Shown in pieces: positions 750 through 31,228 of a DNA stretch of 64,000 nt. The notes beneath the pieces were generated by a model that did no database searches, was not told where the DNA came from, and worked only from the letters and a program-made list of their open reading frames with translations. The position numbers were made by a program, and so were the translations under genes. Position 1 is the first letter of the stretch, and each line of letters opens with the position of its first letter. The DNA is from Candidatus Woesearchaeota archaeon (GTDB lineage Archaea; Nanobdellota; Nanobdellia; Pacearchaeales; GW2011-AR1): contig CAZJEO010000002.1 of assembly GCA_964545065.1 (NCBI GenBank), positions 68,879 to 132,878 of the forward strand, written 5' to 3'.

Positions 750-1808
750 ATGATACCAGAGAAAGTTAAGAAAGTTTTGAAGAAACAACATTATGGACTT
801 GTTGGTCGGCATTCTGCTGTGCAGATTTGTAGATGGACGAAGAAGTCGATGCGAGACGAGGGTGTTTGTTATAAGGAGAAGTTTTATGGGATTAAATCGC
901 ATCAATGTTGCCAGATGACGCCTGCTGTGATGTGGTGTCCGAATAAGTGTTTGCATTGTTGGAGGGCTGTTGAATTGACAATTGGAGATAAGTTGGGGGA
1001 GGGAATTGATTCGCCTAAGGAGATTATTGATGGTTGCATTAAAGCTCAGAGAAAATTGTTGACTGGTTTTAAGAAATCAAAAGAGAAGAGAAATTTTAGC
1101 AGAGCTAATATGGAAAAATGGGAAGAAGCTCAGGAGCCTATGCAGTTTGCTATTTCACTTTCGGGTGAGCCATTTATTTATGATAAGATTGGAGAGTTGA
1201 TTGAAGAGTTGAGGAAAAGAGGCAAGACAAATTTTGTTGTGACTAACGGACTTTATCCTGAAAAAATTAAAGAGTTGGCTGAGAAAAAACAATTGCCAAC
1301 ACAACTTTATATTTCTGTTAATACTCCGAATAAAGAAATGTATGAGAAGTTTCATAGGAGTTCTATGAAAGATGCTTGGGAAAAATTGAATCAGAGTTTG
1401 GAGATAATGTCTGAGTTGACACCACAGGCGTATACCCAAAAAGGGCACGAGAACCTCTCCCAAGGCCCCGATAAATCTTCTGCAAAGATTTCTACTAGGG
1501 GCAAATGTCGTACGATATTCAGAATGAACCTTGTTAAGGGTTTGAATATGGAAAATAAGATGATTAAAGAATATGCTGAGTTGATTAAAAAGGCGAAGCC
1601 TATGTTTGTCGAGGTTAAAGGATTTATGAGTGTGGGATTTGCGCGAGATAGGTTAGGTTATGACAAGATGCCTACAGACAAAGAGATGCTTGAGTTTGTA
1701 AAAAAGTTAGGAAAAGAAACTGGGTTGAAACTTTTGGATAGCCATGAATTTTCAAGAGCATATATTTTGGGAAAGAGTGGAGAGGGGATGAAGATTAAGG
1801 GGAATTAA
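750..1808 (+). CDS. taw1: tRNA 4-demethylwyosine synthase (Taw1/TYW1-type radical SAM)
   Basis: Cys-rich N-terminal segment (CRWTKKS..GVCYKEKFYG..CCQMTP) plus CPNKCLHCWR (CxxxCxxC), typical of TYW1/Taw1. Carries a repeat-element insertion at 1420-1505. Confidence 0.75.
   Translation: MIPEKVKKVLKKQHYGLVGRHSAVQICRWTKKSMRDEGVCYKEKFYGIKSHQCCQMTPAVMWCPNKCLHCWRAVELTIGDKLGEGIDSPKEIIDGCIKAQRKLLTGFKKSKEKRNFSRANMEKWEEAQEPMQFAISLSGEPFIYDKIGELIEELRKRGKTNFVVTNGLYPEKIKELAEKKQLPTQLYISVNTPNKEMYEKFHRSSMKDAWEKLNQSLEIMSELTPQAYTQKGHENLSQGPDKSSAKISTRGKCRTIFRMNLVKGLNMENKMIKEYAELIKKAKPMFVEVKGFMSVGFARDRLGYDKMPTDKEMLEFVKKLGKETGLKLLDSHEFSRAYILGKSGEGMKIKGN
1420..1505 (+). repeat. In-frame palindromic mini-element, long form, diverged copy (inside taw1)
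   Basis: CACCACAGGCGTATACC...GGCCCCGATAAATCTTCTGCAAAGATTTCTACTAGGGGCAAA aligns with the copies at 17558 and 25138. Inner stem AAATCTT/AAGATTT; outer stem GCCCC/GGGGC. Confidence 0.7.
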
Positions 1809-2038
1809 CTTAAATTTGGGTCGTATGTTGATTCTCCAACTAAAACAGTTTTATCTTTTTTTATTACAACGGCACCATCATATCTAATTTCTCTTTCTCC
1901 AGAGGAATCTTTAGCAACAATATAATGACTGCCATTTCTTATTACTGGTAAAAATTTTATCAAACCAACTTCATTTGGAAATGCTACTAAATCTCCTAAA
2001 TCTACATTTACTCTACAAGGTCTGCTTAACTCTTTCAT
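1805..2038 (-). CDS. Hypothetical protein (77 aa)
   Basis: ORF starts directly after the stop codon of the upstream minus-strand ORF. No motif recognised. Confidence 0.3.
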   Translation of the reverse strand: MKELSRPCRVNVDLGDLVAFPNEVGLIKFLPVIRNGSHYIVAKDSSGEREIRYDGAVVIKKDKTVLVGESTYDPNLS

Positions 2039-2398
2039 CTACAAATCCACCACGCCTAACTTAGTCAATGCGGCGAATCTTATTCCCACAGGCAAGTTGA
2101 TGAGGGCTGAGATAAGCGCCATGTGTTCTTTGCCATTGCCAGAGGCAATTGTAACTGCAACTTCAACGCCTTTGATTTTTCCCTTGAGGTTTTTTAAAAA
2201 TTCATCCTTTAAATCAACTAATCTTTTGTCCAAGTTTACTTTAATGAATTCGATTATTTCTGTTTTTCCTTGAACACTAAATTGAGACGAAGATTCATCT
2301 CCGAGAATTATAACTTTGTCCCAGTCGCCTTGTTTAATCAAACCAGAAACTTGTTCCCAAGTTCCTTTCCCTGATGATAAAAGTGCTATTAATTCCAT
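2039..2398 (-). CDS. Hypothetical protein (119 aa)
   Basis: Intact ORF, minus strand. No motif recognised. Confidence 0.35.
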   Translation of the reverse strand: MELIALLSSGKGTWEQVSGLIKQGDWDKVIILGDESSSQFSVQGKTEIIEFIKVNLDKRLVDLKDEFLKNLKGKIKGVEVAVTIASGNGKEHMALISALINLPVGIRFAALTKLGVVDL

Positions 2399-2485
2399 AC
2401 GAGAAAGAAATCAGATTTGTTTTTAAGCATTATTGTGATTATGAATTACATAAATATATTTATATTTAAAAAATGAGATGAGTTA

Positions 2486-2986
2486 ATGAATGATAAAGAT
2501 TTCATGCGTATTGCTTTGGAAGAAGCTGAAAAAGCTTATCTAAATGGGGAACTACCTATTGGGGCTGCATTGGTGATAGGAGGAAATCTTATTGGTGGCA
2601 ACAGTAGTTCACAAGTTGAAAATGCAAATTACTTTAATCATGCAGAAAATATTCTTATACAAAGACATGGAAGAGAAATAAAAAAAGCACACAAGAGATC
2701 TTTGTCTATTGAATTATACACCACTATGGAACCCTGCCTTATGTGTTTAGGGGCTATTGTTCATAATAGGATTACTAGAATTATTTATGCTTGCCCAGAT
2801 CCTATCGCAGGATCCTCCCAGATAGATCCTCCTACTGGATGGTATAGGAGGAAATGGCCAAATATAGAGCAAGGCCCTCTTATTGAAGAGAGTTATGAAA
2901 TTTTCATGAAACATCTTGAAGAGAATCAAGAAACATGGAAAAATGTTCTTTCTACTTATAGAGATTTAAAAGAAGAACTTTTATAA
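2486..2986 (+). CDS. CMP/dCMP-type zinc deaminase (TadA / guanine deaminase-like)
   Basis: HAE and PCLMC (PCxxC) zinc-binding motifs at the spacing typical of the cytidine/deoxycytidylate deaminase fold. Confidence 0.7.
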   Translation: MNDKDFMRIALEEAEKAYLNGELPIGAALVIGGNLIGGNSSSQVENANYFNHAENILIQRHGREIKKAHKRSLSIELYTTMEPCLMCLGAIVHNRITRIIYACPDPIAGSSQIDPPTGWYRRKWPNIEQGPLIEESYEIFMKHLEENQETWKNVLSTYRDLKEELL

Positions 2987-3145: not shown

Positions 3146-3765
3146 AAGAAAAATTAATCAAAGCATTAACAGAGCTTAGAAAGGAAAAGGAAAGAAAGTT
3201 TGATCAGACAGTGGATTTGATTTTGAATCTGCAAAAGTTTGATCATAAAAGGAATTCTATTAATTTGTCTGTCAATGTTCCGTTTAAAATTAAAGATAAA
3301 AAGATTGCTGGATTTTTTGAAACAAAGAAAGAAGGTGTTGAAACAATTACAAAAGAAATGTTCAAGAAATATTCTGATAAAAATGAAATGAAGAAACTTG
3401 TTAAGAATTTTGATTTTTTTATGGCTGAGGGGAAATTAATGCCAGTTGTTGCTACGACTTTTGGAAGAGTTCTTGGTCCTGTTGGTAAAATGCCGTCTCC
3501 GCAATTGGGTATTTTGATGCATGTTGACGATAAGGAAATTGAAGAATTGAAAAAGAGAATTAATAATAGTGTTAAAATTCGGGCAAAAGAAAGCAGCATT
3601 AAATTGTCTATTGGGAAGCAGAGTATGAAGGATGAGGAAATTATTGAAAATGTTATGGTTGTTTATAATGCAGTTTTGAAAGCTTTGCCAAGAGATAAAG
3701 AGAATATTAAGAATGTTGAAGTTAAATTCACCATGACTAAACCTCAGAAGATAAAGATAAGATGA
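3136..3765 (+). CDS. rpl1: 50S ribosomal protein L1 (uL1)
   Basis: Length and sequence typical of archaeal uL1. Followed by P0 and P1 in the conserved stalk operon order. Confidence 0.9.
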   Translation: MELKEKLIKALTELRKEKERKFDQTVDLILNLQKFDHKRNSINLSVNVPFKIKDKKIAGFFETKKEGVETITKEMFKKYSDKNEMKKLVKNFDFFMAEGKLMPVVATTFGRVLGPVGKMPSPQLGILMHVDDKEIEELKKRINNSVKIRAKESSIKLSIGKQSMKDEEIIENVMVVYNAVLKALPRDKENIKNVEVKFTMTKPQKIKIR

Positions 3766-4937
3766 GCGAACAAAAACAAACACATGTTTCAGAAGCAAAG
3801 AAAGAGATAGTTGGAAACTTAACTGATTTGATAAAAAGTAAGAAAACTGTGTTGATTGCTTCGATAAAAAATATTCCTGCTTCGCAATTTCAAGAGATTG
3901 GTAAAAAGCTTAGAGGAAAAGCTGTTGTTAAAGTTCCAAAAAAGAATTTGATTTTTAGAGCGATTGATGAATCTGGAAATGAAACTGTGAAGAAACTTAA
4001 GGAAAAAATCACAGATAGTGTAGCTGTTTTATTTTCTGATGTTGATGCTTTTGAACTTGCTGCAGATTTATTGAAGAAAAAAAGTCCAGTTAAAGCAAAG
4101 GCTGGTCAAGAAGCTCCAGAAGATATTTCTGTTCCAGCTGGTCCAACTGAATTGCTTCCAGGGCCTGCAATAAGTGAGCTTGGTGCATTGGGAATTCAAG
4201 TTCAAATTGAAAACGGAAAAATAACTATTAGAGAACCAAGAGTGATTGCAAAGCGAGGTGAAGAAATTACTTCGGGTGCTGCAGATGTTATGAACAAGTT
4301 AGACATAAAACCATTCTCAGTAGGTTTTGTTCCTTTGGCTGCGTTTGATTCTCAAGAAAATAAATTATACACAGATATTAATATTGATCAAGAAAAAACA
4401 ATTGAAGAACTTAAAATTGCATTTGGAAAGGCCTTACCTTTTGCTGTAGAGATTGGTTATTCAACTAGTGAGACAATTAGCTTCATGATTGGTAAAGCTG
4501 GGATGCATGAAAAGGCTTTGGAGAAGTTTGCTGGAGTGGAAGAGAAGGAAGAGGAAAAAGTGGAAGAGAAGGAAGGGGAAGAAAAAAATGCTGAAGCTGA
4601 CGCTTCAGGAAATAAAGAAGTAGTTAATGAGGAAATGCAGAGTGAAAGTGGTGAGAGTGATAGTGAAGAGAAAGTTGAAGAAGTGAAGGAAGAAGTTAAT
4701 GAGAAAACGCTGAGTGAAGAGGAAAAGAAAGACGAGAAAGAAAGTGCTGGCGCGGATGAGGGGGAAGTAATTAATCCAGATTCGCAGGGTGATGAGGTTA
4801 AGGTTGAAAGTGAAGAAGTTAAAGATGAGAAACCAGAGGAAACTGAAAATCAAACTCAACAAGGAGAATCTAAAGAAGAATCAAATGACAATCAAACTCC
4901 TGAAGAAAATAAATCTGACGGGGAGGAAAATAAATAA
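3762..4937 (+). CDS. rplP0: Ribosomal stalk protein P0 (uL10) with a long acidic low-complexity C-terminal extension
   Basis: N-terminal uL10 domain and position between L1 and P1. The C-terminal ~130 aa are E/K/S-rich and lack the GLxxLFG tail. Confidence 0.85.
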
Positions 4938-5328: not shown

Positions 5329-7314
5329 ATGGTGTGGAGTTTATATGAAAAAGACGGTAAAGCTCTTGAACCTTTGAAGTTCTCAAATGGGAAATCCCAA
5401 TCAGATGTTGTTGATGAAGTTTTGAAAGCAATTGAAGAGGGAAACAAGATAATTTTTATTCATGGTGTTTGCGGGACTGGAAAGAGTGCGATTGCTTTGA
5501 ATATTGCTCGGAAGCTTGGGAAAAGTTCTATAATTGTTCCTGGGAAAAATCTTCAGGCACAATATCAAAAAGATTATGAGGTGAATAAATATCTTTTGAA
5601 AGAATCTAATTTAAAAAATATTGATTTGGAGAAATTTCCTAAATTAAAAGCTTTGCAAGGGCAGCAAGATAAATTAAAAATTAAAGTGATTACTGGCAGA
5701 GGCAATCATAAGTGCAAGTTTTTAGAGGATAATAAGAATGCTGTTCCTGTTGTGAAAAAAGAGGTTAATGCTTCTTTGCATGATATTTTTGAGGGCAAGA
5801 GAGAAGGAGTTAAAGAGTTGATTGCAAAAGATTTATCTGCGAATAATAAAAATCTACCGTGCAAGATTGAGATTAAAGAAAAAAATTGGAATAGGATTAA
5901 GACATATTTGAAACAGAATAAGAAAATGAATGTTGAAAACTTGAATGATATAAGGGATGTTGGGAGGGCTGCGGTTGCGCTTGCTTGCCCTTATTGGAGT
6001 CCTGTGCTGCCTGAAAAATATTCGCTGAAGGTTTTTGCAGATTCAAAAAAAAGAAGTTATCTTGGGTTGGAGGATACAAGGTTTGTTTGCCATGCAGGAA
6101 AAGAAGGATGTAAATTCTATGAACAATTTGATTCATTTGTTAATTCTGATGTAATTGTTTTTAATTCTATGAAATATGTTTTAGAGTCTGCTATGAATAG
6201 GAAGCCTAGCACCGAAGTTGAAATCATTGATGAGTGTGATGAATTTTTAGATAAATTTTCTAATCAAAGGAACATTAATATTGATAGATTGCAAAATTCT
6301 CTGGTGTATGTATTTGGTGAAGAAAAAGTTGAGATGGCTATTAAGGAAATTAGTGAGTTAATTAAAGAATTCAAAAGAAATGAGAGAATTAATCATGCGG
6401 TTGAAAGTGGAGAGATAATTCCTCTTAAAGAAACTGGCATCTATGATTTGTTTAAGATTTTCTTAGGCTCTAAGGAGTTTCTTGATGAAATAGATGATGA
6501 AAGTTATTTGTTTGATGTTGAAGAAACTGCGAAAATGTTTGAAGATTTTCTCGATGAATCATATGTTACAATTAACAAGTCTGACACAGGTATTATTGCT
6601 AATGTTGTGACTACAAATCTTGCTAAAAAATTTCAAGAAATGATAAACAAAAATAAAATTTTAGTTTTAATGTCTGGAACTCTTCATTCTGATAGTGTCT
6701 TGAAAAATATTTTTGGATTAGAAGATTATATTATTATTGATGCTGAAACAGAGGGGCAGGGAAAAATAGAAGTTGTTAGAACTGGATTGGAAAAGGATTT
6801 TAAATATTCCAATAGAGGTAAATTTTCTAGAGGAGATTATTTGGAAGCGTTGGGCAAGTGTGTTGAAGTGGCGAAGAGGCCTGTGCTCGTTCATGTGAAT
6901 GCTTATGCTGATTTGCCTTCTGAAAGTGAGTTGGAAGAATATGATATTGATAATTTAATTTCTAGAGAGAAATTAAGAGAGACTCAAGAAGAAGATAAAA
7001 CTGGTGAATTAATTGAGAGATTTAAGGTTGGGCAAAGTGATATTTTATTTTCTACGCGTAGTGCGAGAGGAATGGATTTTCCAGGAGAGCAATGCAATAG
7101 TATTATTTTTACAAAATATCCTAATCCGAATGTGAGAGATGCGTTTTGGCAAATCTTGAACAAGACAAAGCCACAATTTTATTGGGATTTTTACAAAGAT
7201 AAGGCACGGAGAGAATTGTGGCAGAAAGTTTATCGTGGATTAAGATTTAAAGAGGACCATGTTTATTTGTTAAGTCCTGATGTGAGGGTGTTGGATGGTT
7301 TTAGCAATCCTTAA
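5329..7314 (+). CDS. Superfamily-2 helicase, XPD/DinG (DEAD_2)-like, tentative
   Basis: Walker A GVCGTGKS, Walker B/DExD-like IIDECDEF, and several Cys between the motifs (KCKF, LPCK, ACPYW, CHAGKEGCKF) suggesting an Fe-S domain. Confidence 0.5.
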   Translation: MVWSLYEKDGKALEPLKFSNGKSQSDVVDEVLKAIEEGNKIIFIHGVCGTGKSAIALNIARKLGKSSIIVPGKNLQAQYQKDYEVNKYLLKESNLKNIDLEKFPKLKALQGQQDKLKIKVITGRGNHKCKFLEDNKNAVPVVKKEVNASLHDIFEGKREGVKELIAKDLSANNKNLPCKIEIKEKNWNRIKTYLKQNKKMNVENLNDIRDVGRAAVALACPYWSPVLPEKYSLKVFADSKKRSYLGLEDTRFVCHAGKEGCKFYEQFDSFVNSDVIVFNSMKYVLESAMNRKPSTEVEIIDECDEFLDKFSNQRNINIDRLQNSLVYVFGEEKVEMAIKEISELIKEFKRNERINHAVESGEIIPLKETGIYDLFKIFLGSKEFLDEIDDESYLFDVEETAKMFEDFLDESYVTINKSDTGIIANVVTTNLAKKFQEMINKNKILVLMSGTLHSDSVLKNIFGLEDYIIIDAETEGQGKIEVVRTGLEKDFKYSNRGKFSRGDYLEALGKCVEVAKRPVLVHVNAYADLPSESELEEYDIDNLISREKLRETQEEDKTGELIERFKVGQSDILFSTRSARGMDFPGEQCNSIIFTKYPNPNVRDAFWQILNKTKPQFYWDFYKDKARRELWQKVYRGLRFKEDHVYLLSPDVRVLDGFSNP

Positions 7315-7341
7315 AAACACTTAATTTTTATATAGAATATT

Positions 7342-7422
7342 GCCTCTGTCGCATAATGGTAGTGCACCGGCCTTGAGAGCCGGGCCCTTACGGGCTTCCA
7401 GGTTCGATTCCTGGCGGGGGCG
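7342..7422 (+). tRNA. tRNA-Ser (anticodon UGA)
   Basis: Hand-folded cloverleaf. Acceptor GCCTCTG/CGGGGGC with two G-U pairs; D arm GCAT-AATGGTA-GTGC; anticodon arm CCGGC-CTTGAGA-GCCGG. Long variable hairpin GCCC-TTAC-GGGC; T arm CCAGG-TTCGATT-CCTGG. No encoded CCA. Confidence 0.8.
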
Positions 7423-7425
7423 TTT

Positions 7426-8529: not shown

Positions 8530-9756
8530 CTAATTTCTTAACATAAAATCTATTTGATTTAGAAGTTTACCTGCAACATGTATGTGATTATAATTATTAA
8601 GTACTGCTTCTTTATTTTTTTCTATAAGGCTTGAGGATTTTTCTATTCTTTTGTTTAGACCTAAGAGGGTTTGTAGTTGATCCATCTTTTCATTGTCAGA
8701 TAAAAAAGTCTTTACTTTACTCATTCTTTCTTCTGGATTCTTGCTATTATGTAAAACAGAATTATCGTATAAAGCACTTAGATCTATTCCTGCTTCTTCA
8801 AAATCTTTTGTAATTTCTGGAATATTCCTTCCAATCAGGGGTGTTCCTGAAACCCAAGGTTCTATAAAAGCAAATCCAAAACCTTCCTTGATGCTTGTTG
8901 AAATAACTAAATCTGAGATTGCAAATAAATCAGCTGTTGTGAACTCCCCTTTACCATAATCAAGAAATTTGTAAGCTTCTCCTATTGAGCAAGGGACATC
9001 ATGTTTTTTTGCTAGGGATTTTATTTCTTCTGCATAATCATCTTCATGGGGAACAGTTATAATGAGTCTATGGTTTCCTCCAAAATTATTGAGTAGCTTT
9101 GTTATTAAAATTGCCTCTTCAATATTTTTTCTTCTCAAGACTCGCACAGGATATGAGATTATTTTTTCCCCTGGTTTAACTATCCCTGACTCTTCAAATT
9201 TTTCTCTTAATTTCTTAGCGTTTTCTTCACTTGTATATAAATTAGATTCCACAATTGAATTTGGAATCACAGAAACATTTTTCAGACCTTTTTGCAAAAG
9301 CCTGCCTTTATCAAAAGATGTTAAAGTTAGAAAATGAACATTATCTGATTTGGGGTAAACATCATTTATATCCTTGAAGAACTTTCTGAATTCTTCTGAA
9401 AGATGAGGACGGTCATCAATGAAATCATGAATTCTGTAAATTATTTTTTTGCTTAGATTTTTTTCTGCAAATTCTTTGAATGCTAGTGTTGCTCTTGGGT
9501 AGATTCCAACTACCGGATTTTCTATGATTAGAACATCTGAATCCGATGAAACTTTTTCTATTTCTGAAACTAGGTCTTCCGCTTCCCAATTAATAATTCT
9601 TTTTTCAGCATAATCTGGTATTGCTTCATTAAAAGGATTGCCTACGAACACAAATTCAATATCTGGCGATTGCTCCCTTAATCCCCTCACATTGTTCAGA
9701 ACCGTTCTTGTCACTCCATCTTTTTTGAAGTAATAATGCAAAAAACAAATCTTCAT
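8530..9756 (-). CDS. Glycosyltransferase (GT-B/GT4-like), tentative
   Basis: Size and C-terminal STSIKEGFGFAFIEPWVSG resemble the GT4 EX7E region. Confidence 0.5.
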   Translation of the reverse strand: MKICFLHYYFKKDGVTRTVLNNVRGLREQSPDIEFVFVGNPFNEAIPDYAEKRIINWEAEDLVSEIEKVSSDSDVLIIENPVVGIYPRATLAFKEFAEKNLSKKIIYRIHDFIDDRPHLSEEFRKFFKDINDVYPKSDNVHFLTLTSFDKGRLLQKGLKNVSVIPNSIVESNLYTSEENAKKLREKFEESGIVKPGEKIISYPVRVLRRKNIEEAILITKLLNNFGGNHRLIITVPHEDDYAEEIKSLAKKHDVPCSIGEAYKFLDYGKGEFTTADLFAISDLVISTSIKEGFGFAFIEPWVSGTPLIGRNIPEITKDFEEAGIDLSALYDNSVLHNSKNPEERMSKVKTFLSDNEKMDQLQTLLGLNKRIEKSSSLIEKNKEAVLNNYNHIHVAGKLLNQIDFMLRN

Positions 9757-17362: not shown

Positions 17363-18070
17363 ATGACAGAAAAAGATTATAATCCAGAACAGAAAAATAA
17401 AAAAGTGATGAACACGCAAAAGGTAGTTGGAAAAGTAAATGAATCTCCTGTAAAAAAGGAAACTGCAAAAATTGCGCCAGAGGAAAAGAAAATAGCTTCG
17501 CCTGGAGACGAAGGAGATAAAGAAGTAATTAATAACAAAGACAGCGGCGCTATTAAGACACCCAAGGGTGTACACCAAGGAGGTGCGAGTACCTCTTCGA
17601 GGCCTCGAGAAACTTCTGGAGAAGTTTCTACTAGGGGCAAAAAACAACCTGTAACTTCTAAAGTAAAAAAGAGTGAAGCAATTGTTAATGGAGTTGGTTT
17701 GCCTCTTTCAACAAAAACATCTGTTGCTATTTGTAAATTTATTCGTGGAAAAAGCATTCCAAAAGCAATTGCAAATTTAGAGCAAGTTATTGCTAAGAAA
17801 AAAGCTGTTCCAATGAAAGGCGAAATTCCTCATAGAAAAGGAAAAATTATGTCGGGAAGATTCCCAAAAAATGCTGCAGAATATTTTATTAAATTATTAA
17901 AGAATTTGCAAGCAAATGCAAACGCTAATGGTTTGGACGAGCCAGTTGTTGCTGAAGCTATGGCAAATATTGCGTCTCAACCTTATGGAAGATTTGGAAG
18001 AGTTCGAAGAAAGAGAACTCATGTTTTACTTAAGGCTAAAGACAAGAAAATGAAGGGAGGAAACAAATAA
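17363..18070 (+). CDS. rpl22: 50S ribosomal protein L22 (uL22) with a ~95-aa N-terminal extension
   Basis: ATG 1 nt after the rps19 stop. The conserved uL22 core starts near GLPLSTKTSVAICKFIRGK. The extension contains the long repeat element. Confidence 0.85.
   Translation: MTEKDYNPEQKNKKVMNTQKVVGKVNESPVKKETAKIAPEEKKIASPGDEGDKEVINNKDSGAIKTPKGVHQGGASTSSRPRETSGEVSTRGKKQPVTSKVKKSEAIVNGVGLPLSTKTSVAICKFIRGKSIPKAIANLEQVIAKKKAVPMKGEIPHRKGKIMSGRFPKNAAEYFIKLLKNLQANANANGLDEPVVAEAMANIASQPYGRFGRVRRKRTHVLLKAKDKKMKGGNK
17558..17641 (+). repeat. In-frame palindromic mini-element, long form (rpl22 N-terminal extension; TPKGVHQGGASTSSRPRETSGEVSTRGK)
   Basis: ACACCCAAGGGTGTACACCAAGGAGGTGCGAGTACCTCTTCGAGGCCTCGAGAAACTTCTGGAGAAGTTTCTACTAGGGGCAAA. 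Inner stem AGAAACTTCT/AGAAGTTTCT. Confidence 0.9.
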
Positions 18071-18834
18071 TGGAAGAAAGAAATACAGTTAAATTTAGAA
18101 AAGATGAATTTGCTATCAAGGAATATATTAAAAAGCAACTTGGAAAAGGTAAGGTTAGCAAAGTTAGGATTGAATACACTCCTATTGGGGAGAAGATAAT
18201 TGTTTCAACAAGCAAGCCTGGTTTGGTTATTGGGAGAAAAGGAGAGAGAATTGAAGAGTTGACAATTATTTTGAAAAAGAAGTTCAAGCTTGAGAATCCG
18301 ATAGTTGAGATTGATGAGATTTTAAACCCAGAGTTTGATGCTCAGATTATTGCTGATGAGATTGCGCTTGGGTTAGAGAGGAGTGGGCCGTTGAAGTTTA
18401 AAGTTATTGCTTATCGGACATTGCAGAAAATAATGGGTGCAGGAGCTCTTGGAGCTGAGATAGTTATTGGGGGAAAATTGCCAGGAGCAAGGGCAAAATC
18501 CTGGAGGTTTGCTCAAGGATATTTAAAGAAAACAGGAGATAGTGCAAAGATTGTTGACAGAGCGAAATCAACTGCGCAAACAAAACCAGGAACTGTTGGA
18601 ATTAAAGTTAGTATACTTTCACCAGATGCTGTCTTTAAGGATAAAATAAAGATTGATGATGAAGTTATTGCAAAATTAAAGAATGCTGCAGAGGAAGTTG
18701 CGCCCAAGGGTGTACCCCGAGATATTTCTAAAGAAATATCTACCGAGGGCAAAGAGCAACAGAAAAAGAAAATAGTAAAAACTAAACTGGTATCTAAAGG
18801 TGTACCTTCTAAGGAAGGCAAGGCGGCGAAATAA
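18070..18834 (+). CDS. rps3: 30S ribosomal protein S3 (uS3)
   Basis: KH domain (LVIGRKGERIEEL) and conserved position. The C-terminal tail holds two repeat copies. Confidence 0.95.
   Translation: MEERNTVKFRKDEFAIKEYIKKQLGKGKVSKVRIEYTPIGEKIIVSTSKPGLVIGRKGERIEELTIILKKKFKLENPIVEIDEILNPEFDAQIIADEIALGLERSGPLKFKVIAYRTLQKIMGAGALGAEIVIGGKLPGARAKSWRFAQGYLKKTGDSAKIVDRAKSTAQTKPGTVGIKVSILSPDAVFKDKIKIDDEVIAKLKNAAEEVAPKGVPRDISKEISTEGKEQQKKKIVKTKLVSKGVPSKEGKAAK
18700..18754 (+). repeat. In-frame palindromic mini-element, medium form (rps3 tail; APKGVPRDISKEISTEGK)
   Basis: GCGCCCAAGGGTGTACCCCGAGATATTTCTAAAGAAATATCTACCGAGGGCAAAG. Inner stem GATATTTCT/AGAAATATC. Confidence 0.85.
18793..18823 (+). repeat. 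In-frame palindromic mini-element, short form, diverged (rps3 tail; SKGVPSKEGK)
   Basis: TCTAAAGGTGTACCTTCTAAGGAAGGCAAGG. The stem is CCTTC/GAAGG instead of CCCTC/GAGGG, a paired compensatory change. Confidence 0.65.
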
Positions 18835-19363: not shown

Positions 19364-19756
19364 ATGGAAAAAATAGAAGAAAAGAAACAGATAGAGAAAG
19401 AAACAGCTAAGACAGCTGGAGCTGGATGTGAAGATAAGAATTGTCATGTTCATGGTAGCTTGAAAGTTCGTGGAAAAATCTTTGAAGGAGAAGTTATCAA
19501 GAAATTCCCTAAGAGAGTTGTTATTCAATTTGAAAGAATGATTTATGTTAGAAAATATGAAAGATACAAAAAAAGTAAGACAAAGATTCACGCAAGACTT
19601 CAAGATTGTATGAAGGATGATGTTCAAGTTGGAGATATGATTAGGATTCAAGAATGTCGACCTTTGAGTAAGATTATACATTTTATAGTGCTAGGGAAAA
19701 TCACACCCAAAGGTGTACCCTCTAAAGAGGGCAAAGCCAAGGAGGAAAAGAAATGA
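19364..19756 (+). CDS. rps17: 30S ribosomal protein S17 (uS17)
   Basis: CEDKNCHVHG and RIQECRPLSK motifs. First ATG in the ORF. The tail carries the short repeat. Confidence 0.9.
   Translation: MEKIEEKKQIEKETAKTAGAGCEDKNCHVHGSLKVRGKIFEGEVIKKFPKRVVIQFERMIYVRKYERYKKSKTKIHARLQDCMKDDVQVGDMIRIQECRPLSKIIHFIVLGKITPKGVPSKEGKAKEEKK
19703..19736 (+). repeat. In-frame palindromic mini-element, short form (rps17 tail; TPKGVPSKEGK)
   Basis: ACACCCAAAGGTGTACCCTCTAAAGAGGGCAAAG, near-identical to the rpl3 copy. Confidence 0.85.
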
Positions 19757-20918: not shown

Positions 20919-21145
20919 TGAAAACAGAAACAAGAAATTTAATTAGAAATTGTAGAAAACTAAAAAAAGTGCATAAAATAGCTAAAAAATGTGTTTCTTT
21001 AAATGATTTGCAATTTTCTTTAAAGATTTTCGAAACAAACTTGGATCGACTTGGAAAAAGAGTACCCGAAGATCCCAGAGCAGGTCGTGCATTTAGGAAA
21101 TATCAAGCATTTTATAATAGAAAATGTGCGGAGGTTTATCGATAA
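20918..21145 (+). CDS. Small lineage-specific ORF (75 aa) intercalated between rpl24 and rps4e
   Basis: TAATG overlaps at both ends. Basic helical protein, no homology recognised. Confidence 0.5.
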   Translation: MKTETRNLIRNCRKLKKVHKIAKKCVSLNDLQFSLKIFETNLDRLGKRVPEDPRAGRAFRKYQAFYNRKCAEVYR

Positions 21146-22103: not shown

Positions 22104-22769
22104 ATGACAGATAAAGAAGAAGAAACTAAAATGGCAGAAGAAACAGCACCCAAGGGTGTACACCAAGGAGGCGCGAGTACCTCTTCGCCAAGTAGGTCTG
22201 AAAGAAGGCCCCTAGACATTTCTCAAGAAATGTCTACTGAGGGCAAAGAAAAACAAATGGCATCCAAGGAGAATCCAATGCGAGAAATAAAAATCGAGAA
22301 GATTGTTCTTAGCATAGGTGGGATTGGAGAAGACTTGGAAAAGGGTGTTAAGCTTTTGAAACTTATTACTGGAAGAGTTCCTGCTAAAAAAAGATCAAAC
22401 AAAAGAATTCCAACTTTGAATGTTCGACCGAAACTTGAAATTGGAGCAATGGTTACAATCAGGCAAAACATAAAAGAGTTTTTGGAAAAAATGCTTGTTG
22501 CTATTGATAATACTTTGAAGAGAAAACAAATAAGTGAAAATAATTTTTCATTTGGAATCCATGAATATATTGAGATTCCAGGAGTAGAATATCAGAGAGA
22601 ACTTGGAATCATGGGATTTGATGTTACTGTTGTTTTCAAAAGAGCAGGACGAAGAGTTAAGTTGAGAAAAGTGAAGCGAGGAAAAGTTTCAAAGCGACAA
22701 GTTATAAGCAAAGAAGAAATAATTAAATTCATGGAAGAAAATTTTAATACGGAGTTTGTGGGGAAATGA
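22104..22769 (+). CDS. rpl5: 50S ribosomal protein L5 (uL5); alternative start at 22257
   Basis: The conserved uL5 core begins at MASKENPMREIKIEKIVLSIG (ATG 22257). The in-frame upstream 51 codons from ATG 22104 consist mostly of the long repeat element. Confidence 0.85.
   Translation: MTDKEEETKMAEETAPKGVHQGGASTSSPSRSERRPLDISQEMSTEGKEKQMASKENPMREIKIEKIVLSIGGIGEDLEKGVKLLKLITGRVPAKKRSNKRIPTLNVRPKLEIGAMVTIRQNIKEFLEKMLVAIDNTLKRKQISENNFSFGIHEYIEIPGVEYQRELGIMGFDVTVVFKRAGRRVKLRKVKRGKVSKRQVISKEEIIKFMEENFNTEFVGK
22146..22248 (+). repeat. In-frame palindromic mini-element, long form with an extra 18-nt module (5' of the rpl5 core)
   Basis: GCACCCAAGGGTGTACACCAAGGAGGCGCGAGTACCTCTTCG[CCAAGTAGGTCTGAAAGA]AGGCCCCTAGACATTTCTCAAGAAATGTCTACTGAGGGCAAAG. 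Inner stem TAGACATTTCT/AGAAATGTCTA. Confidence 0.9.
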
Positions 22770-24077: not shown

Positions 24078-24152
24078 ATGAAAAAAGTAAATCAACCAAG
24101 TAGGTCTGAAGGAAGATTTTCATGTTTTCCTTTTTGGAGGAACCGAAAATGA
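24078..24152 (+). CDS. Leader uORF upstream of rpl6 (MKKVNQPSRSEGRFSCFPFWRNRK)
   Basis: ATG 1 nt after the rps8 stop. AAAATGAAAAAAG is duplicated at 24075-24087 and 24146-24158. Its stop overlaps the rpl6 ATG (ATGA), and GGAGG lies 8 nt before rpl6. Contains the GTAAATCAA..AGATTTTCA core plus the 18-nt module. Confidence 0.45.
   Translation: MKKVNQPSRSEGRFSCFPFWRNRK
24096..24115 (+). repeat. 18-nt module CCAAGTAGGTCTGAAGGA(AG), second copy (inside the rpl6 leader uORF)
   Basis: Matches 22188-22208 (CCAAGTAGGTCTGAAAGAAGG) with one mismatch. It is absent from the otherwise homologous leaders at 3101 and 15745. Confidence 0.7.
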
Positions 24153-24691: not shown

Positions 24692-25227
24692 TGGCTCCAA
24701 CATTTTTAAGACGAACAAGTTTTAGGTATTCAAAACTTGGAAAGGGTAGAAAGAAAAAACAAGTTTGGAGAAGACCGACTGGAAGAGATAATAAAATGCG
24801 GGAAAGAAGGAAAGGATATCCTGCTGTGGTTAGTGTTGGATACAAGACAAATAAAAAAGAACACAAAAATATTGTGAATGTTGAAAATTTAAAGGATTTG
24901 GCAAAAGTACAAAAAGGAGATGTTGTTGTTTTTGGAAATATTGGAAAAAAGAAAAAAATAGAACTTGCAAAAAAGGCAAAAGAAATGAAAATTGAAATCA
25001 GTAATTTAAATATTGAAAAGTTTTTAAAAAAGATTAAAGAGAAGGAAGAGAAGAAAGTTGAAGTTGAGACAAAAGGAAAAAAGATAGTTAAGAAAACTGG
25101 AGTGAAGAAGAAAGAAGAAACTAAATCAGATGGAGTCGCACCCAAGGGTGTACACCAAGAAGGTGCGAGTACCTCTTCGAGGCCCCGAAACATTTCCAAG
25201 GAAATGTCTACTGGGGGCAAAAAATGA
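24691..25227 (+). CDS. rpl32e: 50S ribosomal protein L32e (eL32) with a C-terminal extension
   Basis: FLRRTSFRYSKLG..WRRPTGRDNKMR is the eL32 core. The tail ends with the long repeat element. Confidence 0.9.
   Translation: MAPTFLRRTSFRYSKLGKGRKKKQVWRRPTGRDNKMRERRKGYPAVVSVGYKTNKKEHKNIVNVENLKDLAKVQKGDVVVFGNIGKKKKIELAKKAKEMKIEISNLNIEKFLKKIKEKEEKKVEVETKGKKIVKKTGVKKKEETKSDGVAPKGVHQEGASTSSRPRNISKEMSTGGKK
25138..25221 (+). repeat. In-frame palindromic mini-element, long form (rpl32e C-terminus, abutting the rpl19e start)
   Basis: GCACCCAAGGGTGTACACCAAGAAGGTGCGAGTACCTCTTCGAGGCCCCGAAACATTTCCAAGGAAATGTCTACTGGGGGCAAA. Inner stem ACATTTCC/GGAAATGT. Confidence 0.9.
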
Positions 25228-26137: not shown

Positions 26138-27005
26138 AATTACAGAAAAAGCTAAACAAATAGATGCTGGAAATAGAAGAGCCTTTGGTGGTTCTCCAGA
26201 AGATAGAAAGAAAAGATTTCAGCAAAGAATTGAAGAAGAAGAAAGAGAAAGATTAGCTAGTTGGAAACCAAAAACAAAACTTGGAAGAGAAGTAAGAGAA
26301 GGGAAGATAAAAAATATTGATGAAATTCTTGATTCAGGAAGAAAAATTATGGAATCTGAAATTGTTGATTTGGTTGCAAATGTTAAATCTGATTTAATTT
26401 TCGTTGGACAATCAAAAGGAAAGTTCGGTGGTGGAAAGAGAAGAGTTTGGAGACAAACGCAGAGAAAAACTCGTGAAGGAAATGTTCCTACTTTTTCAAC
26501 AATGGCTGTTATAGGAGATGGGAATGGGCATATTGGAATTGGCGATGGGAAGTCTAAGGAAACTTTGCCTGCAAGAGATAAAGCAACAAAGAAAGCTAAG
26601 TTGAATATTTTTAGAATTACAAGAGCTTGTGCTGGTTTTGATTGTGCTTGTTCTGAATTACATTCTGTTCCATTCAAAGTTACTGGAAAATCTGGAAGTG
26701 TTAGAGTTACATTAATCCCTGCACCACAAGGAACTGGATTGGTTGTGGCAAATGAATTAAAGAAAATTTTGAAACTTGCTGGAATCAAAGATGTTTATAG
26801 TAGAACTTCGGGTAAACAGCGAACATCTTTTAACTTGATTAAGGCTTGTATTGAAGCTTTAAAGAAAACAAATGGTGATAAGCAAGTTGTTGCAAAACAA
26901 GTGATTAAAAAAGTTGAAAAGAAAGAAGAAGTTGTAGAAAAGAAACCTGTGAAAACTGACGAAAAGAAAACAGAATCAAAAGAAGTTAAGGAGGTTGGGA
27001 AATGA
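26127..27005 (+). CDS. rps5: 30S ribosomal protein S5 (uS5) with a K/E-rich C-terminal extension
   Basis: uS5 core (GDGNGHIGIGDGKSKE) and first ATG in the ORF. Confidence 0.9.
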   Translation: MESKITEKAKQIDAGNRRAFGGSPEDRKKRFQQRIEEEERERLASWKPKTKLGREVREGKIKNIDEILDSGRKIMESEIVDLVANVKSDLIFVGQSKGKFGGGKRRVWRQTQRKTREGNVPTFSTMAVIGDGNGHIGIGDGKSKETLPARDKATKKAKLNIFRITRACAGFDCACSELHSVPFKVTGKSGSVRVTLIPAPQGTGLVVANELKKILKLAGIKDVYSRTSGKQRTSFNLIKACIEALKKTNGDKQVVAKQVIKKVEKKEEVVEKKPVKTDEKKTESKEVKEVGK

Positions 27006-27229
27006 ATTTAGTTGAAACTGCAGTTGTAGCTTTGGAAAAGGTTGTTAATGTGTATTGTGATGATAAGTCCCGAAAAGGGATGGATGAAGTTAGAGATTAC
27101 TATGCTACTTATGAGAAAGTTCTTTCAAGTGAAGGAGAGGGTTTGCCAGAAGAAACTATTCTGGAACTTGAAGGGCGAGCTAAAACTGCTTATAAAACAT
27201 TTTGGGAGAATAAAACACCATGCTGGTAG
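27002..27229 (+). CDS. Small lineage-specific ORF (75 aa) intercalated between rps5 and rpl30
   Basis: ATGA overlap with rps5 and a 10-nt overlap with rpl30. No homology recognised. Confidence 0.5.
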   Translation: MNLVETAVVALEKVVNVYCDDKSRKGMDEVRDYYATYEKVLSSEGEGLPEETILELEGRAKTAYKTFWENKTPCW

Positions 27230-27567: not shown

Positions 27568-28118
27568 TAACTAAAAAACGAACAAAAGCATCTCGACAAC
27601 ATGGAAGAAACATGGGAACACACGGAGGCGGAGCTAGGAAAAAGCGAAAAGGTTCAGGGCATAGAGGAGGAAAAGGAATGTCTGGAAGTGGAAAGCGAGC
27701 AGACCAGAAGAAAACTCTTGTGATAAAACTTTATGGTCATGAGTATTTCGGTAAGCAGGGAATCACAAGCAGGGGAACAAAAAGAGATACAAGACAAAGA
27801 ATTAATCTTCAACAAATTGAAAATAATTTAGAGAAATATGGACACCAAGGGCGTACCCCGAAAGATTTTGATAAAAAATCTTTACAAGGGGCAAAGCAAG
27901 GAAAAGATGGTTGGGAAATTGAATTAGGAAAATATAAAATTCTTGGAAATGGCGAAGTTAAGAATAAATTAATTATTACAGCTATGGAAGCTTCTGCATC
28001 TGCGGTTGAGAAAGTGAAGAAAGCTGGCGGGGAGATAATTGTTAATGCTCACCGCTCGGTGTACCCCAAATTGCAGAATAAAGGGGCAAAAAAAGAGGAA
28101 AACATTGAAGAAAAATGA
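27564..28118 (+). CDS. rpl15: 50S ribosomal protein L15 (uL15)
   Basis: G/R/K-rich N-terminus (GGGARKKRKGSGHRGGKG) and conserved position. Holds two repeat copies. Confidence 0.9.
   Translation: MITKKRTKASRQHGRNMGTHGGGARKKRKGSGHRGGKGMSGSGKRADQKKTLVIKLYGHEYFGKQGITSRGTKRDTRQRINLQQIENNLEKYGHQGRTPKDFDKKSLQGAKQGKDGWEIELGKYKILGNGEVKNKLIITAMEASASAVEKVKKAGGEIIVNAHRSVYPKLQNKGAKKEENIEEK
27842..27896 (+). repeat. Palindromic mini-element, medium form, read in a different frame (inside rpl15; HQGRTPKDFDKKSLQGAK)
   Basis: ACACCAAGGGCGTACCCCGAAAGATTTTGATAAAAAATCTTTACAAGGGGCAAAG. Inner stem AAAGATTTT/AAAATCTTT; outer stem CCCC/GGGG. Confidence 0.75.
28050..28090 (+). repeat. Palindromic mini-element, short/diverged form, third reading frame at the 5' arm (rpl15 C-terminal region)
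   Basis: CACCGCTCGGTGTACCCCAAATTGCAGAATAAAGGGGCAAA retains the GGTGTACCCC and GGGGCAAA arms. Confidence 0.55.
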
Positions 28119-29584: not shown

Positions 29585-30376
29585 ATGGAAGAAAGAAACG
29601 AGAAGAATGGAGAAGGGAATAATACTGAATCTGAAGGTTCAGATAATAGGGAAACTGATAATCTAGATTCTCAGAGTGATGAGAGCAAGGTAGAAATAAC
29701 TGATAACCCCGCGTCCCAAGATGAAAATTCTGAGCCGGCAGGCGAAGCTAATTCTGATGATAAACCAGAAGAAGTGAAAGAAGAACCAGTGAGTGAGCCA
29801 GAAGTGAAAGAAGAGGCTCCTGCAGTTCCAAAAAGTAAAAAAGGTAAGGAAGGAAGTTGGATGCCTATGATTATTGTTATGGGTTTGTCGCTTGTTATTG
29901 CATTTTCTTGGGATAAAGTTTCTTTTATTAGTGATACTGTTCATAAAGTTCTTGACCCGAGTGCAGGATGGTTATTGGATTGGAATACTACTGCGGGTAT
30001 GTTAATTATTGTTCTTGCTATTGGATTATTGACTACTCTTATTCAGAAATATGCAACAGATCAAGATGCTCTTAGGGAGTTGAAGAAAGAACAAAAGATT
30101 TTGCAGGCAGAAATGAAAAAGTACAAAGATGATCCTGGAAGAGTCGCTGAATTATCAAAAAAGCAGATGCAGTTTATTCCAAAGACAATGAAACTCACAA
30201 GCAGAGCGATTATGTTTACAGGTGTGCCGTTTATTTTATTCTTTAGATGGTTTAGTGACTATTTCCTTAAGATTCCAGATTTCAAGTTTTTTGGGTTCTT
30301 GAGTTGGTTTTGGTTTTACTTGATTTTCACAATGGTCTTTAGTGGCTTTTTGAGGAAGTGGATGAAGGTTGTTTAA
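29585..30376 (+). CDS. DUF106 / EMC3-TMCO1-like (Oxa1 superfamily) membrane protein with an acidic N-terminal extension
   Basis: TM-coiled coil-TM-TM layout (LRELKKEQKILQAEMKKYKDDP) and the conserved archaeal position near secY. Confidence 0.6.
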   Translation: MEERNEKNGEGNNTESEGSDNRETDNLDSQSDESKVEITDNPASQDENSEPAGEANSDDKPEEVKEEPVSEPEVKEEAPAVPKSKKGKEGSWMPMIIVMGLSLVIAFSWDKVSFISDTVHKVLDPSAGWLLDWNTTAGMLIIVLAIGLLTTLIQKYATDQDALRELKKEQKILQAEMKKYKDDPGRVAELSKKQMQFIPKTMKLTSRAIMFTGVPFILFFRWFSDYFLKIPDFKFFGFLSWFWFYLIFTMVFSGFLRKWMKVV

Positions 30377-30398
30377 TTAATAATTTTTATAAATTAAT

Positions 30399-30650
30399 TT
30401 AGAAACCTAAAAATTTTTTACATCTCTCATAAGATGCTATGGCTTTTGAATTTCCTTGTTGAATTAAATCTAAATAATTATGAATGCTCTTAACACCAAC
30501 CTCTTCAAGAGGATCATATCCCCCAAAAGTGCTATAACGAGTTATTGCAGTTCCTCTCAAGAAATTCGCTACATGTTCTATTGCAGGATGTTGCCTTTGA
30601 AAATCTTCATCTAAAAGAAGGGGACAATCGTATGTTAAACTATTAGCCAT
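30399..30650 (-). CDS. Hypothetical protein (83 aa)
   Basis: Intact ORF, no motif recognised. Confidence 0.35.
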   Translation of the reverse strand: MANSLTYDCPLLLDEDFQRQHPAIEHVANFLRGTAITRYSTFGGYDPLEEVGVKSIHNYLDLIQQGNSKAIASYERCKKFLGF

Positions 30651-30727
30651 ATAAAAAATTAGTAACCGAATATATAAGGATTTATGTAATCCAAAACTCT
30701 TAAAAACCCTTTATTTCTTTACCAAAC

Positions 30728-31228
30728 ATGGAAAACGAACAACAAGAAATGATGTTTAAGATGCAAATGTTTGATCAACAGATTAAGCAGTTGCAACAAC
30801 AATTACAAGCAATTGATCAAGGGATTTCAGAAATGACTGCTTTGAACGAAGGACTTAGTGAACTAGTTGGGAAAGAAGGGAAAGAAATTTACGCTCCAAT
30901 TGGTAGGGGCATATTTGCAAAAGCTAAACTTATTTCAGAAGATTTGAATGTTGATGTTGGTGGAGGAAACATGGTTAAGAAAACTATTCCTGAAACTAAA
31001 AAGATAATTGAAGACCAACTTAAGAAACTTGATGAAGTTAAGAAAGAGCTTGAAACTGGTATGGAAAAAATGGGCGAAGAATTTAAGGTCCTGATTGAAG
31101 ATGCTCAGGCTAAAGAAGCTGGGAATATTGGAAAGAAAGAGGAAGGGAAAGAAAAGAAACCAACAAAGACATCAAACATTTCCCAAGAAATGTCTACTAA
31201 AGGCAAGAAAATTGATGAGTTGGTTTAA
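30728..31228 (+). CDS. pfdA: Prefoldin alpha subunit
   Basis: Coiled coil, beta-hairpin region (IYAPIGRGIFAKAKL..VDVGGGNMV), coiled coil. The tail carries a partial repeat. Confidence 0.7.
   Translation: MENEQQEMMFKMQMFDQQIKQLQQQLQAIDQGISEMTALNEGLSELVGKEGKEIYAPIGRGIFAKAKLISEDLNVDVGGGNMVKKTIPETKKIIEDQLKKLDEVKKELETGMEKMGEEFKVLIEDAQAKEAGNIGKKEEGKEKKPTKTSNISQEMSTKGKKIDELV
31174..31207 (+). repeat. Palindromic mini-element, 3' half only (prefoldin tail; NISQEMSTKGK)
   Basis: AAACATTTCCCAAGAAATGTCTACTAAAGGCAAG. Stem ACATTTC/GAAATGT followed by CTACTA-AGGCAAG, as in the long copies. Confidence 0.6.

Follow-up and report, generated by a model that had tools for sequence, protein, structure and literature searches.

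Tiny, probably translated hairpin repeats in conserved genes of a Woesearchaeota archaeon and their probable spread by insertion through related DPANN genomes

What is a GC-rich hairpin sequence, repeated in several sizes, doing within the genes of ribosomal proteins and other conserved proteins of an archaeon? The question is raised by a 64,000-nucleotide stretch of DNA of Candidatus Woesearchaeota archaeon (GCA_964545065.1, contig CAZJEO010000002.1, positions 68,879 to 132,878 of the forward strand), hereafter called the window, in which a sequence-only reading had described eleven copies of a palindromic mini-element with common arms, inserted in-frame in conserved genes in the manner of the Rickettsia palindromic elements (RPEs). 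The answer that we propose, and that we hold to be probable without being sure of it, is that of tiny, non-autonomous, translated hairpin repeats, akin to RPEs and to the repetitive extragenic palindromes (REPs) of bacteria, which have spread by insertion through DPANN genomes of the Woesearchaeota and Pacearchaeota type. The repetition of the element, its structure, its insertion polymorphism, its in-frame status, its sense orientation and its wide host range are established.

The 15-nt 5' arm of the element, CACCCAAGGGTGTAC, has six matches in the window with at most three mismatches, all on the + strand, where 0.17 are expected from shuffled sequences; the enrichment is 35-fold. A covariance model was made from 32 aligned medium-size copies, 30 of them from other genomes, and was run across the whole window with the filters off. 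On the + strand it returned exactly the eleven sites that had been described, all of which carry the motif: eight copies have E values of 1e-18 to 2e-6, a half-copy in the prefoldin gene has E = 1e-4, and two degenerate copies, L15b (E = 0.019) and S3b (E = 0.83), score weakly. On the minus strand the model matched nothing but the inner hairpin of these copies, which is palindromic, and between 32 and 64 kb it found nothing credible, as had been claimed. The GC fraction of the copies is 0.45-0.54, against 0.28-0.38 for the window. The host genes named by the sequence-only reading (Taw1/TYW1, L3, L22, S3, S17, L5, L32e, L15 and prefoldin) are confirmed by Pfam, nine of the copies being in the ribosomal-protein operon, and Taw1 and prefoldin, located elsewhere in the window, carrying one each.

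Folding and alignment of the copies give a common layout, composed of a hairpin 1 (RCACC / CAAG / GGTGT), the tetranucleotide GTAC, a CCC(C)...GGG(G) stem that encloses a variable inner hairpin, and a CAAA tail; GTAC and GGGCAA are nearly invariant among the aligned copies. Across the family the sizes form the series 33/51/54/84/102 nt. In the short class (33 nt) the second stem is simply CCCTC-TAAA-GAGGG, and in the medium class (54 nt) it holds an inner hairpin of 9-10 bp. The long class (84 nt) is the medium one with a 30-nt hairpin module added after GTAC, and the longest class (102 nt, in L5) is the long one with an 18-nt module added in the loop of the 30-nt module. Other genomes contain further types of centre, including a 49-nt class encoding PSVEGDVNTEGK and variants of 53-55 nt, and in two loci (L027 and L021) whole elements are nested in the inner loop of other elements. 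In the inner helix, 8 of the 10 pairs are changed on both sides and 95% of the cells are paired among the 32 copies, with a covariation score of 0.304 as against 0.140 for shuffles (0/500 reach 0.304) and at most 0.10 for slid partners.

The description of a palindromic element with arms is thus to be amended: the arms are present, but they are not inverted repeats of one another, and the element consists of two or three hairpins in a row. The 5' arm CACCCAAGGGTGTAC shows no complementarity to the 3' arm GGGCAAA, and terminal inverted repeats (TIRs) are absent. Among 70 copies, no more than 3 have a matching 3-mer at any register that would mark a target-site duplication (TSD), and no clear target consensus is seen upstream, the only signals being an R at -1, itself paired in hairpin 1, and a weakly favoured Y at -3. 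Rfam gave no match to the element at the gathering score or with E up to 10 (only a tRNA-Ser). Three other readings of its parts were tried and rejected. Solo 5' arms as target sites fail on the count of 81 full copies against five arms without the canonical GTGTAC continuation, these five being variants or remnants. For K-turn, C/D-box, H/ACA and sarcin-ricin-like motifs, examined by eye, the G.A pairs or boxes that such motifs need are not maintained from one copy to another. As to GTAC as the target of a restriction-modification system, this tetranucleotide is not avoided in the window (observed/expected 0.98), where 12 of its 56 sites are in elements.

All the window copies sit in an open host reading frame, on the + strand, with no stop codon, as had been stated; the description is to be corrected for the two L15 copies, which use a different frame relative to the element. 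The copies are located in N-terminal extensions in L22 and L5 and in C-terminal tails in S3 (two copies), S17, L32e, L15 (copy L15b) and prefoldin; only those of Taw1, L3 and L15a are internal. The long copy of Taw1 (1419..1505, E = 1e-8) has a variant 5' arm, ACACCACAGGCGTAT, and encodes TPQAY...STRGK at residues 224/225-252. The two 33-nt short copies, in L3 (14352..14384, APKGVPSKEGK, E = 6e-8) and S17 (19703..19735, TPKGVPSKEGK, E = 2e-6), are 97% identical to each other. L22 bears a long copy of 84 nt (17558..17641). In S3 a medium copy of 54 nt (18700..18753, APKGVPRDISKEISTEGK, 75 bits, E = 1e-18) is followed at the extreme C-terminus by the degenerate short copy S3b (18790..18822, SKGVPSKEGK), which has 76% identity within the repeat family and retains hairpin 2 by the compensatory change CCTTC/GAAGG. 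The 102-nt copy of L5 (22146..22247), which is the long form with the 18-nt sub-module, holds the latter in a hairpin loop at 22188..22205 (CCAAGTAGGTCTGAAAGA, peptide PSRSER). The long copy of L32e (25138..25221, 84 nt) forms the C-terminus of the protein, and its stop codon overlaps the start of L19e. In L15, the medium copy L15a (27842..27895, 54 nt, 61 bits, E = 1e-14), read in the shifted frame HQGRTPKDFDKKSLQGAK, has a 1-nt deletion in hairpin 1 and one extra nucleotide in the inner loop, and the copy L15b (28050..28090), with CACCG/CGGTG as hairpin 1, retains GTAC and GGGGCAAA and has lost the inner hairpin. The 3' half-copy of prefoldin (31174..31207) consists of the inner hairpin and AAGGCAAG. 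An example of a peptide spanning the junction between copy and host is FVAPKGVPSKEGKDYDNIH. At ENA, the public scaffold of the source genome (ERZ23499938 scaffold_162, 77.8 kb) stops some 13 nt past the L5 copy, near position 22260 of the window, and the repeat appears to break short-read assemblies.

Are these segments an ancestral part of their hosts or inserted DNA? The ribosomal-protein operons of relatives were reached via proteins carrying the element peptide, with the concatenated element peptides as query. Two of them were compared with the window: L007, of TARA marine origin, with 80-89% amino-acid identity to the window, and L003 (GCA_964604105.1), with 54-71%. Between these three, the element is present, absent or of another form at sites in L3, L22, S3, S17, L24, L5, L32e, L15 and prefoldin. 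L003 has no copies in L3, S3, S17, L5, L32e and L15; L007 is without L15a, but carries two copies in L24 and one more in L32e. At the L15a site, the L15 proteins of both relatives have a 17-aa gap. The S17 tail is short in the window, long in L007 and missing in L003, the S3 tail is medium, long and missing, respectively, and the L22 extension is long in the window and medium in both relatives (54 nt, without the 30-nt module). In the L32e tail, 51 of the 52 bases shared by the window and L007 match, and the difference between the two is exactly one 30-nt module. Other sites keep traces: L007 has only the remnant GCACCCGAGGGC in L3, of which L003 has no trace, and only GCACCCAAGG...AGGGCAA in L5, where L003 has nothing; in prefoldin, it keeps the complementary 5' remnant ACACCCAAGG, the window having the 3' half.

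The TYW1 structures 2yx0 and 2z2u (P. horikoshii and M. jannaschii) align to Taw1 residues 2-224 and 253-340, and residues 236 and 237 of 2yx0 are contiguous across the copy, which is therefore a clean 28-residue insertion. An AlphaFold model made with an alignment of 17 orthologues is mediocre (mean pLDDT 64.5); in it, residues 225-251 are predicted as coil with pLDDT <50, between a confident helix (209-222) and a confident strand (254-261). Most of the 120 listed Taw1 orthologues measure 322-330 aa and, judged from this length, seem to be without the insert. Roughly a dozen exceed it; wherever one of these was aligned, the site holds an element-derived insert of another form. The Taw1 of L147, seemingly empty, retains the 3' half of a medium copy. 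No 100%-identical isoform without the insert was found in the protein collection, and the closest named homologues, among the matches listed, are labelled 'Candidatus Pacearchaeota'. The absences, other forms and remnants at the same sites in two relatives, together with this clean insertion, lead us to the conclusion that the element is inserted DNA and not ancestral sequence; the ancestral alternative, which the sequence-only reading had named as its own refutation, fails on the TYW1 structures, on the short Taw1 orthologues and on the six hosts that carry no copy in L003.

In the Taw1 proteins of L146 and L147, compared with the window at 1506-1520, the 3' arm of the element, (S)TRG, replaces the K-CRT of the host before the conserved IFR strand. 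In this lineage, as the alignment reads, element-coded residues are now part of the conserved protein core.

The ribosomal-protein operon also contains, between its genes, small open reading frames (ORFs) of 60-125 aa whose sets differ among close relatives. They are found in the window at 16728-16958, 20156-20401, 20918-21145, 21791-22102 and 27002-27229, in L007 at 8645-8830, 9196-9555, 11121-11420 and 13133-13339, and in L003 at 4452-4790, 5937-6311 and 15358-15696. Four of those in the window are missing from L007, and vice versa; one L007 ORF is a response-regulator receiver domain, and among those scanned with Pfam, the five of the window and two of L003, none has a credible match. Since these small ORFs differ between relatives, the most conserved operon of the genome also gains and loses whole small genes.

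How far does the element extend beyond these operons? With one genome for each GTDB species, a scan for the exact pattern yielded 62 loci, taken as 8-kb pieces. Fifty-seven of them come from 24 metagenome-assembled genomes (MAGs); 23 of these bear the label Woesearchaeota, Pacearchaeota, Nanoarchaeota or just archaeon, and one that of Patescibacteria; the other five are single bacterial matches without hairpins, which we have taken as chance. The search with a covariance model that the sequence-only reading had advocated, run on the window and on these related loci, gave, besides the eleven window copies, 92 hits in 60 of the 62 loci. Independent assemblies from many studies and habitats contain the family, with sequence variation. 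The 62 host ORFs correspond to 85 Pfam families, including GyrA, PolD DP2, class I aminoacyl-tRNA synthetases, TsaD/Kae1, TRM5/TYW2, ribosomal proteins, diphthamide synthase, deoxyhypusine synthase, GatB/E and a P-type ATPase, and a protein search found the element peptide also in a GTPase, ScpB, S3Ae, L24, LeuRS and a tRNA-binding protein. About one third of the copies are within 35 codons of a C-terminus; others are far from the ORF ends, such as those of L067 (602/591 codons) and L028 (270/796). A single match on a viral contig, GC-rich, without hairpin and antisense to its ORF, was judged to be chance. In the MAG named 'Patescibacteria group bacterium', a contig (L046, JAHJTR010000176.1) bears a true copy of the 49-nt class; it is most likely a mis-binned archaeal contig, and if it were not, the element would cross the domains of life.

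What is conserved in this family, the nucleotides or the peptide? The variants of the hairpin-1 arms keep the pairing and change the peptide: CACCC/GGGTG encodes TPKGV, CACTC/AGTG TTLKSV, CACAC/GTGTG STLRVY, and CACCACAGGCGTAC TPQAY. The 30-nt module encodes HENLS in the Taw1 of the window and VREPLR in the orthologue L145, from nearly the same bases shifted by internal indels, and copies with a 53- or 54-nt core use the other two sense frames inside long ORFs. Judging from these comparisons, the conservation is on the nucleic acid, in its bases and its structure, and not on the peptide. Furthermore, the third codon positions of the neighbouring genes have an identity of 0.59-0.65 between the window and L007, whereas the L32e copy is 98% identical. 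On this evidence the arms are maintained, whether the cause is selection at the nucleotide level, gene conversion or re-insertion.

The single orientation noted in the window says little by itself, all the host genes there being on the + strand, but it holds in other genomes. The 5' arm is intact in 87 copies. Of these, 58 use the PKGV frame and 15 one of the other sense frames, so that about 73 of the 87 lie in sense ORFs; the few copies in 'antisense ORFs' are shadows or chance matches. Eleven copies are located outside long ORFs, and at least 10 of them run in the direction of the genes that flank them. In L014 and L024, copies are found on opposite strands within a few kb, each of them sense to its own gene, and the orientation therefore follows transcription and not replication. 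Stop codons cannot account for the bias, since two of the three antisense frames of the element are stop-free. The frame in use is the most hydrophilic one (grand average of hydropathy -0.8 to -1.3) and the antisense frames are hydrophobic, a difference that may account for part of the sense bias. The asymmetry of G.U versus A.C pairs, considered as an indicator of RNA or DNA structure or of strand choice, was uninformative.

The two copies of L014, at 3307-3364 (-) and 6461-6518 (+), are identical medium copies, inverted and 3.1 kb apart, and the ORFs near both end in the same ...NYSQDKK, which suggests a segmental duplication. The pair was also considered as a REPtron or composite transposon and rejected: judged by eye from their translations, the genes between the copies look like toxin-antitoxin-type genes (HEPN/nucleotidyltransferase and RHH/toxin-type pairs), a zinc-ribbon gene and the host gene, with no obvious transposase.

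The smallest unit of the family deserves separate consideration. The 18-nt sub-module is also found alone in the window, in the spacer between S8 and L6 (24096..24113, +), as CCAAGTAGGTCTGAAGGA, which differs by one base from the CCAAGTAGGTCTGAAAGA of the L5 copy. Metagenomes scanned for the 18-mer CCAAGTAGGTCTGAAAGA yielded 70 loci, of which some 50 are AT-rich and DPANN-like. The module occupies in them the loops or internal loops of many different small hairpins, with at least five contexts. The flanks on its two sides are CACCCA and AGGGTG, CCTCTTCG and AGG, TACCCTA and AAGGGCA, CCCGAA and AAATC, or AAATCAA and AGATTT. In sense ORFs it encodes PSRSER 29 times and QVGLK 26 times, the third frame having a stop. 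On the antisense side none of the three frames is closed by a stop, and still the metagenome loci gave no real antisense case; ORFs overlapping in antisense, whose purine fraction is 0.32-0.42 against about 0.6 for sense genes, are shadows.

The solo module of the window lies between the complementary flanks AAATC and GATTT in a 24-codon mini-ORF (24078-24152), which begins right after the S8 stop and whose TGA overlaps the ATG of L6. Near-identical mini-ORFs precede L10 (L083, ~1083-1163) and S4 (L120, ~6941-7018) on other contigs; the common form, of 24-25 codons, is MK(K)(V/A)NQPSRSE(R/G)RF.... The mini-ORF looks like a portable leader or upstream ORF placed before ribosomal-protein genes.

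The model we propose for these hairpin repeats begins with their spread by insertion, in the course of which the smaller modules of 18 and 30 nt would enter the loops of larger hairpins. Since these genomes have hardly any intergenic space, the copies would survive mainly inside genes, where a filter would retain those whose added length is a multiple of three, which bring no stop codon and which encode a hydrophilic peptide in a tail or a surface loop. A retained copy would be transcribed and translated as part of the host protein; it would be neutral or selfish rather than useful to the host, and its conserved arms would act as recognition sites for a strand-specific machinery provided in trans. 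Later on, the copies decay through internal deletion. By analogy with the REPs, the leading candidate for the mobilising machinery, which we put forward only tentatively, is a hairpin-recognising HUH/Y1 transposase of the IS200/RAYT type. Indeed, the REP-associated tyrosine transposases (RAYTs) cleave REPs, which are hairpins bearing a tetranucleotide tag, in single-stranded form (PMC3733652), and K07491 (RAYT) is reported to be the only transposase entry of the KEGG orthology with strict hits in 256 Nanobdellota proteomes (bioRxiv 10.64898/2026.05.13.725050).

Several observations weigh against this spread by transposition of neutral copies. The conservation of the arms is too high for pure neutrality (51/52 bases versus 0.59-0.65), and the orientation is too strict for the tolerance of the peptide alone to be a full explanation. 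We know of no transposase for which a unit of 18 nt would not be too small. The 70 copies show neither TIRs, nor TSD, nor a clear target consensus. No transposase adjoins a copy in the 8-kb loci, and no match to a Y1 transposase was obtained in about 0.6 Mb of loci by a crude search with the TnpA of IS608 as query.

Could the hairpins serve the host instead? A beneficial structure acting in cis, in the mRNA or the sense DNA, might stabilise or segment transcripts, pause ribosomes or bind a factor, and would lie in coding sequence only for lack of intergenic space. We consider this explanation unlikely, in spite of a number of facts that agree with it: the copies are strictly sense to the transcript, even outside ORFs, the arms and hairpins are conserved far above synonymous sites, 8 of the 11 window copies have a gene end at a distance of about 100 nt or less and cluster at junctions in the highly expressed ribosomal-protein operon, the glycan region at 32-64 kb is devoid of copies, and bacterial REPs are credited with comparable roles (PMC3733652). 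However, many copies are located hundreds of codons from gene ends in large enzymes (L067, L028), copies are freely gained, lost and degraded between close relatives, there is no Rfam match, and the counts of G.U versus A.C favour no structure of the RNA strand. We would likewise give rather little credit to an undescribed, transcript-strand-specific process that inserts modules, down to 18 nt, into hairpin loops, so that the repeats would not be transposon relics at all. Such a process could operate via RNA, by a reaction resembling reverse splicing or by templated repair from an abundant small RNA, or via exposed non-template DNA; if it were real, 'expansion segments' would grow in the mRNAs and proteins of DPANN archaea, and the arms would be conserved since the process or a host factor reads them.

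A spread at the RNA level, by intron-like or retro-inserted units that enter the hairpin loops of transcripts, are copied back to DNA and are maybe removed from some mRNAs, seems to us quite improbable. It would agree with the sense-only orientation, with a mutual nesting that resembles twintrons, with the preference for hairpin loops as targets, with the absence of TSD and TIR and with units as small as 18 nt, a size comparable to that of the shortest archaeal tRNA introns. Splicing would not need the coding copies to be in-frame, stop-free and of a length multiple of three, as all of them are; nor was any identical Taw1 isoform without insert or any reverse transcriptase seen, and no bulge-helix-bulge (BHB) motif, with its two 3-nt bulges 4 bp apart, can be drawn at the ends of the element or, in the four contexts inspected, at the 18-nt module. 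An archaeal BHB intron was in fact rejected, the host stem abutting the insert by 1-2 nt, so that no central 4-bp helix is possible. That a functional peptide motif, PKGV...GK, was selected in the protein and copied between genes is very hard to maintain and is largely refuted by the data on frames: 58 of the 87 copies do share one frame, and the frames of the start (T/A-P) and of the end (G-K) are often restored after internal indels, but the same nucleotides give unrelated peptides in two or three frames, the arms do not vary at synonymous positions though the peptide does, the peptide is freely altered by compensatory base changes, and some copies are outside ORFs. Finally, an assembly artefact, or a similarity due to low complexity or codon bias, can be regarded as refuted. 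One public scaffold ends just past a copy, so the repeat does disturb assembly; but independent assemblies contain the copies with variation and always in-frame, and the 35-fold enrichment of the arm, the strong covariation with 8 of 10 inner pairs compensatory, and the use of the same nucleotides in different frames are not those of ordinary codon bias, an alternative that the sequence-only reading had itself named as a refutation.

The translated, inserted hairpin repeats that we favour belong to a kind already known from Rickettsia, Wolbachia and the MJRE of Methanocaldococcus jannaschii (PMC2229807, PMC2996958, PMC10969869). RPEs (Ogata et al. 2000) measure 105-146 bp and have one long stem-loop, terminal inverted repeats of about 12 bp and a CGTC end (PMC2229807, PMC3733652). 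The present element resembles them, as described in PMC2229807 and PMC10969869, in being a multi-copy palindromic repeat placed in-frame in unrelated conserved housekeeping genes without breaking the ORF, with copies also outside genes, a reduced genome and no transposase of its own; similar coding palindromes occur in Wolbachia. It differs from them by its size (33-102 nt), its two or three short hairpins, arms that are not inverted repeats, its GTAC...CAAA tags, its nested modules, its strictly sense orientation, its archaeal host and the absence of sequence similarity. The analogy with RPEs is therefore sound in the broad sense of a multi-copy hairpin repeat, in-frame in unrelated conserved genes and absent from their orthologues, but not in the strict sense of an RPE, a REP or a miniature inverted-repeat transposable element (MITE); in particular, size, number of hairpins, arms and tags set it apart from RPE-1 to RPE-8. 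The placement in loops and tails is seen in Taw1 by the gap in the PDB alignment and the AlphaFold coil, in L22, L5, S3, S17, L32e, L15 and prefoldin by their tails, and in the other hosts by alignment only.

The case is not without an archaeal predecessor, the MJRE, which are palindromic repeats (Suyama, Lathe & Bork 2005; cited in PMC2229807 and PMC2996958). Like the present element, some MJRE lie in coding genes with the coding potential kept, and they provide the archaeal precedent. These authors reportedly counted 141 MJRE elements, mostly extragenic, with three in coding regions. In contrast to MJRE, said to be mostly extragenic, coding copies are the rule here, the comparison being one of descriptions and not of sequences. 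With the REPs and the bacterial interspersed mosaic elements (PMC3733652), the likeness lies in short imperfect hairpins of 20-40 nt, a conserved tetranucleotide at one end, the formation of mosaics, the transcription with upstream genes, an occasional intragenic location in replication or repair genes, and the recognition as single-stranded hairpins. The differences are a GTAC tag on the 5' side of hairpin 2, where REPs have GTAG or CGTC, and a location which is mainly coding (about 73 of 87 copies in sense ORFs) and in one orientation, whereas REPs are mainly extragenic and often in inverted pairs; moreover, no RAYT was found next to any copy in the loci. The size of MITEs, about 100-200 bp (PMC2229807), is far above that of the present units, which go down to 18 nt. 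MITEs and the palindrome-associated transposable elements (PATEs) of archaea, which derive from IS200/IS605, share with these units a small, non-autonomous and structured nature and a polymorphism of presence and absence, PATEs having moreover subterminal hairpins and no TSD; the present element differs by having no TIRs, no TSD, no conserved target and no related autonomous insertion sequence seen in the 8-kb loci, and it is not inserted 3' of a fixed tetra- or pentanucleotide as PATEs are. Other MITE families, too, have sizes far above 18 nt. The GC-rich hairpin clusters, double-hairpin elements and 'byp' elements of fungal mitochondria are mobile hairpins of a compact, AT-rich genome, some of them coding and nested. 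They belong to an organelle and have no sequence relation to the present element, and byp elements are skipped by the ribosome, of which there is no sign here. In the literature searched, such elements are not described for DPANN, Woese-, Pace- or Nanoarchaeota, and a 2024 review of prokaryotic MITEs gives no DPANN case.

Two features of the window are independent of the element. GATC is strongly under-represented (74 observed versus 182 expected under a second-order model, ratio 0.41), being the lowest of the 4-nt palindromes, which suggests a GATC-specific restriction system in the lineage. A tRNA-Ser gene (anticodon TGA) at 7341-7423 is the sole RNA gene of the window detected by Rfam or ARAGORN.

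In conclusion, the new features of this element are its constant arms with a covarying centre, its construction as a Russian doll from modules of 18 and 30 nt, its strict sense orientation, its very high density in core genes and its spread over a whole archaeal radiation. Palindromic DNA in coding genes, so far known mainly from Rickettsia and Wolbachia, is pervasive in a major and little-known radiation of the Archaea. Its inserts probably lengthen and diversify core proteins, appear to break assemblies, and can mislead the alignments and phylogenies of DPANN that are based on ribosomal proteins. Known transposition gives no explanation for the combination of sense orientation, nesting in loops, 18-nt units and conserved arms. 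These copies provide natural examples of a growth of protein loops driven by nucleotides, up to the TRG of the element which, in Taw1, appears to have replaced residues of its host.

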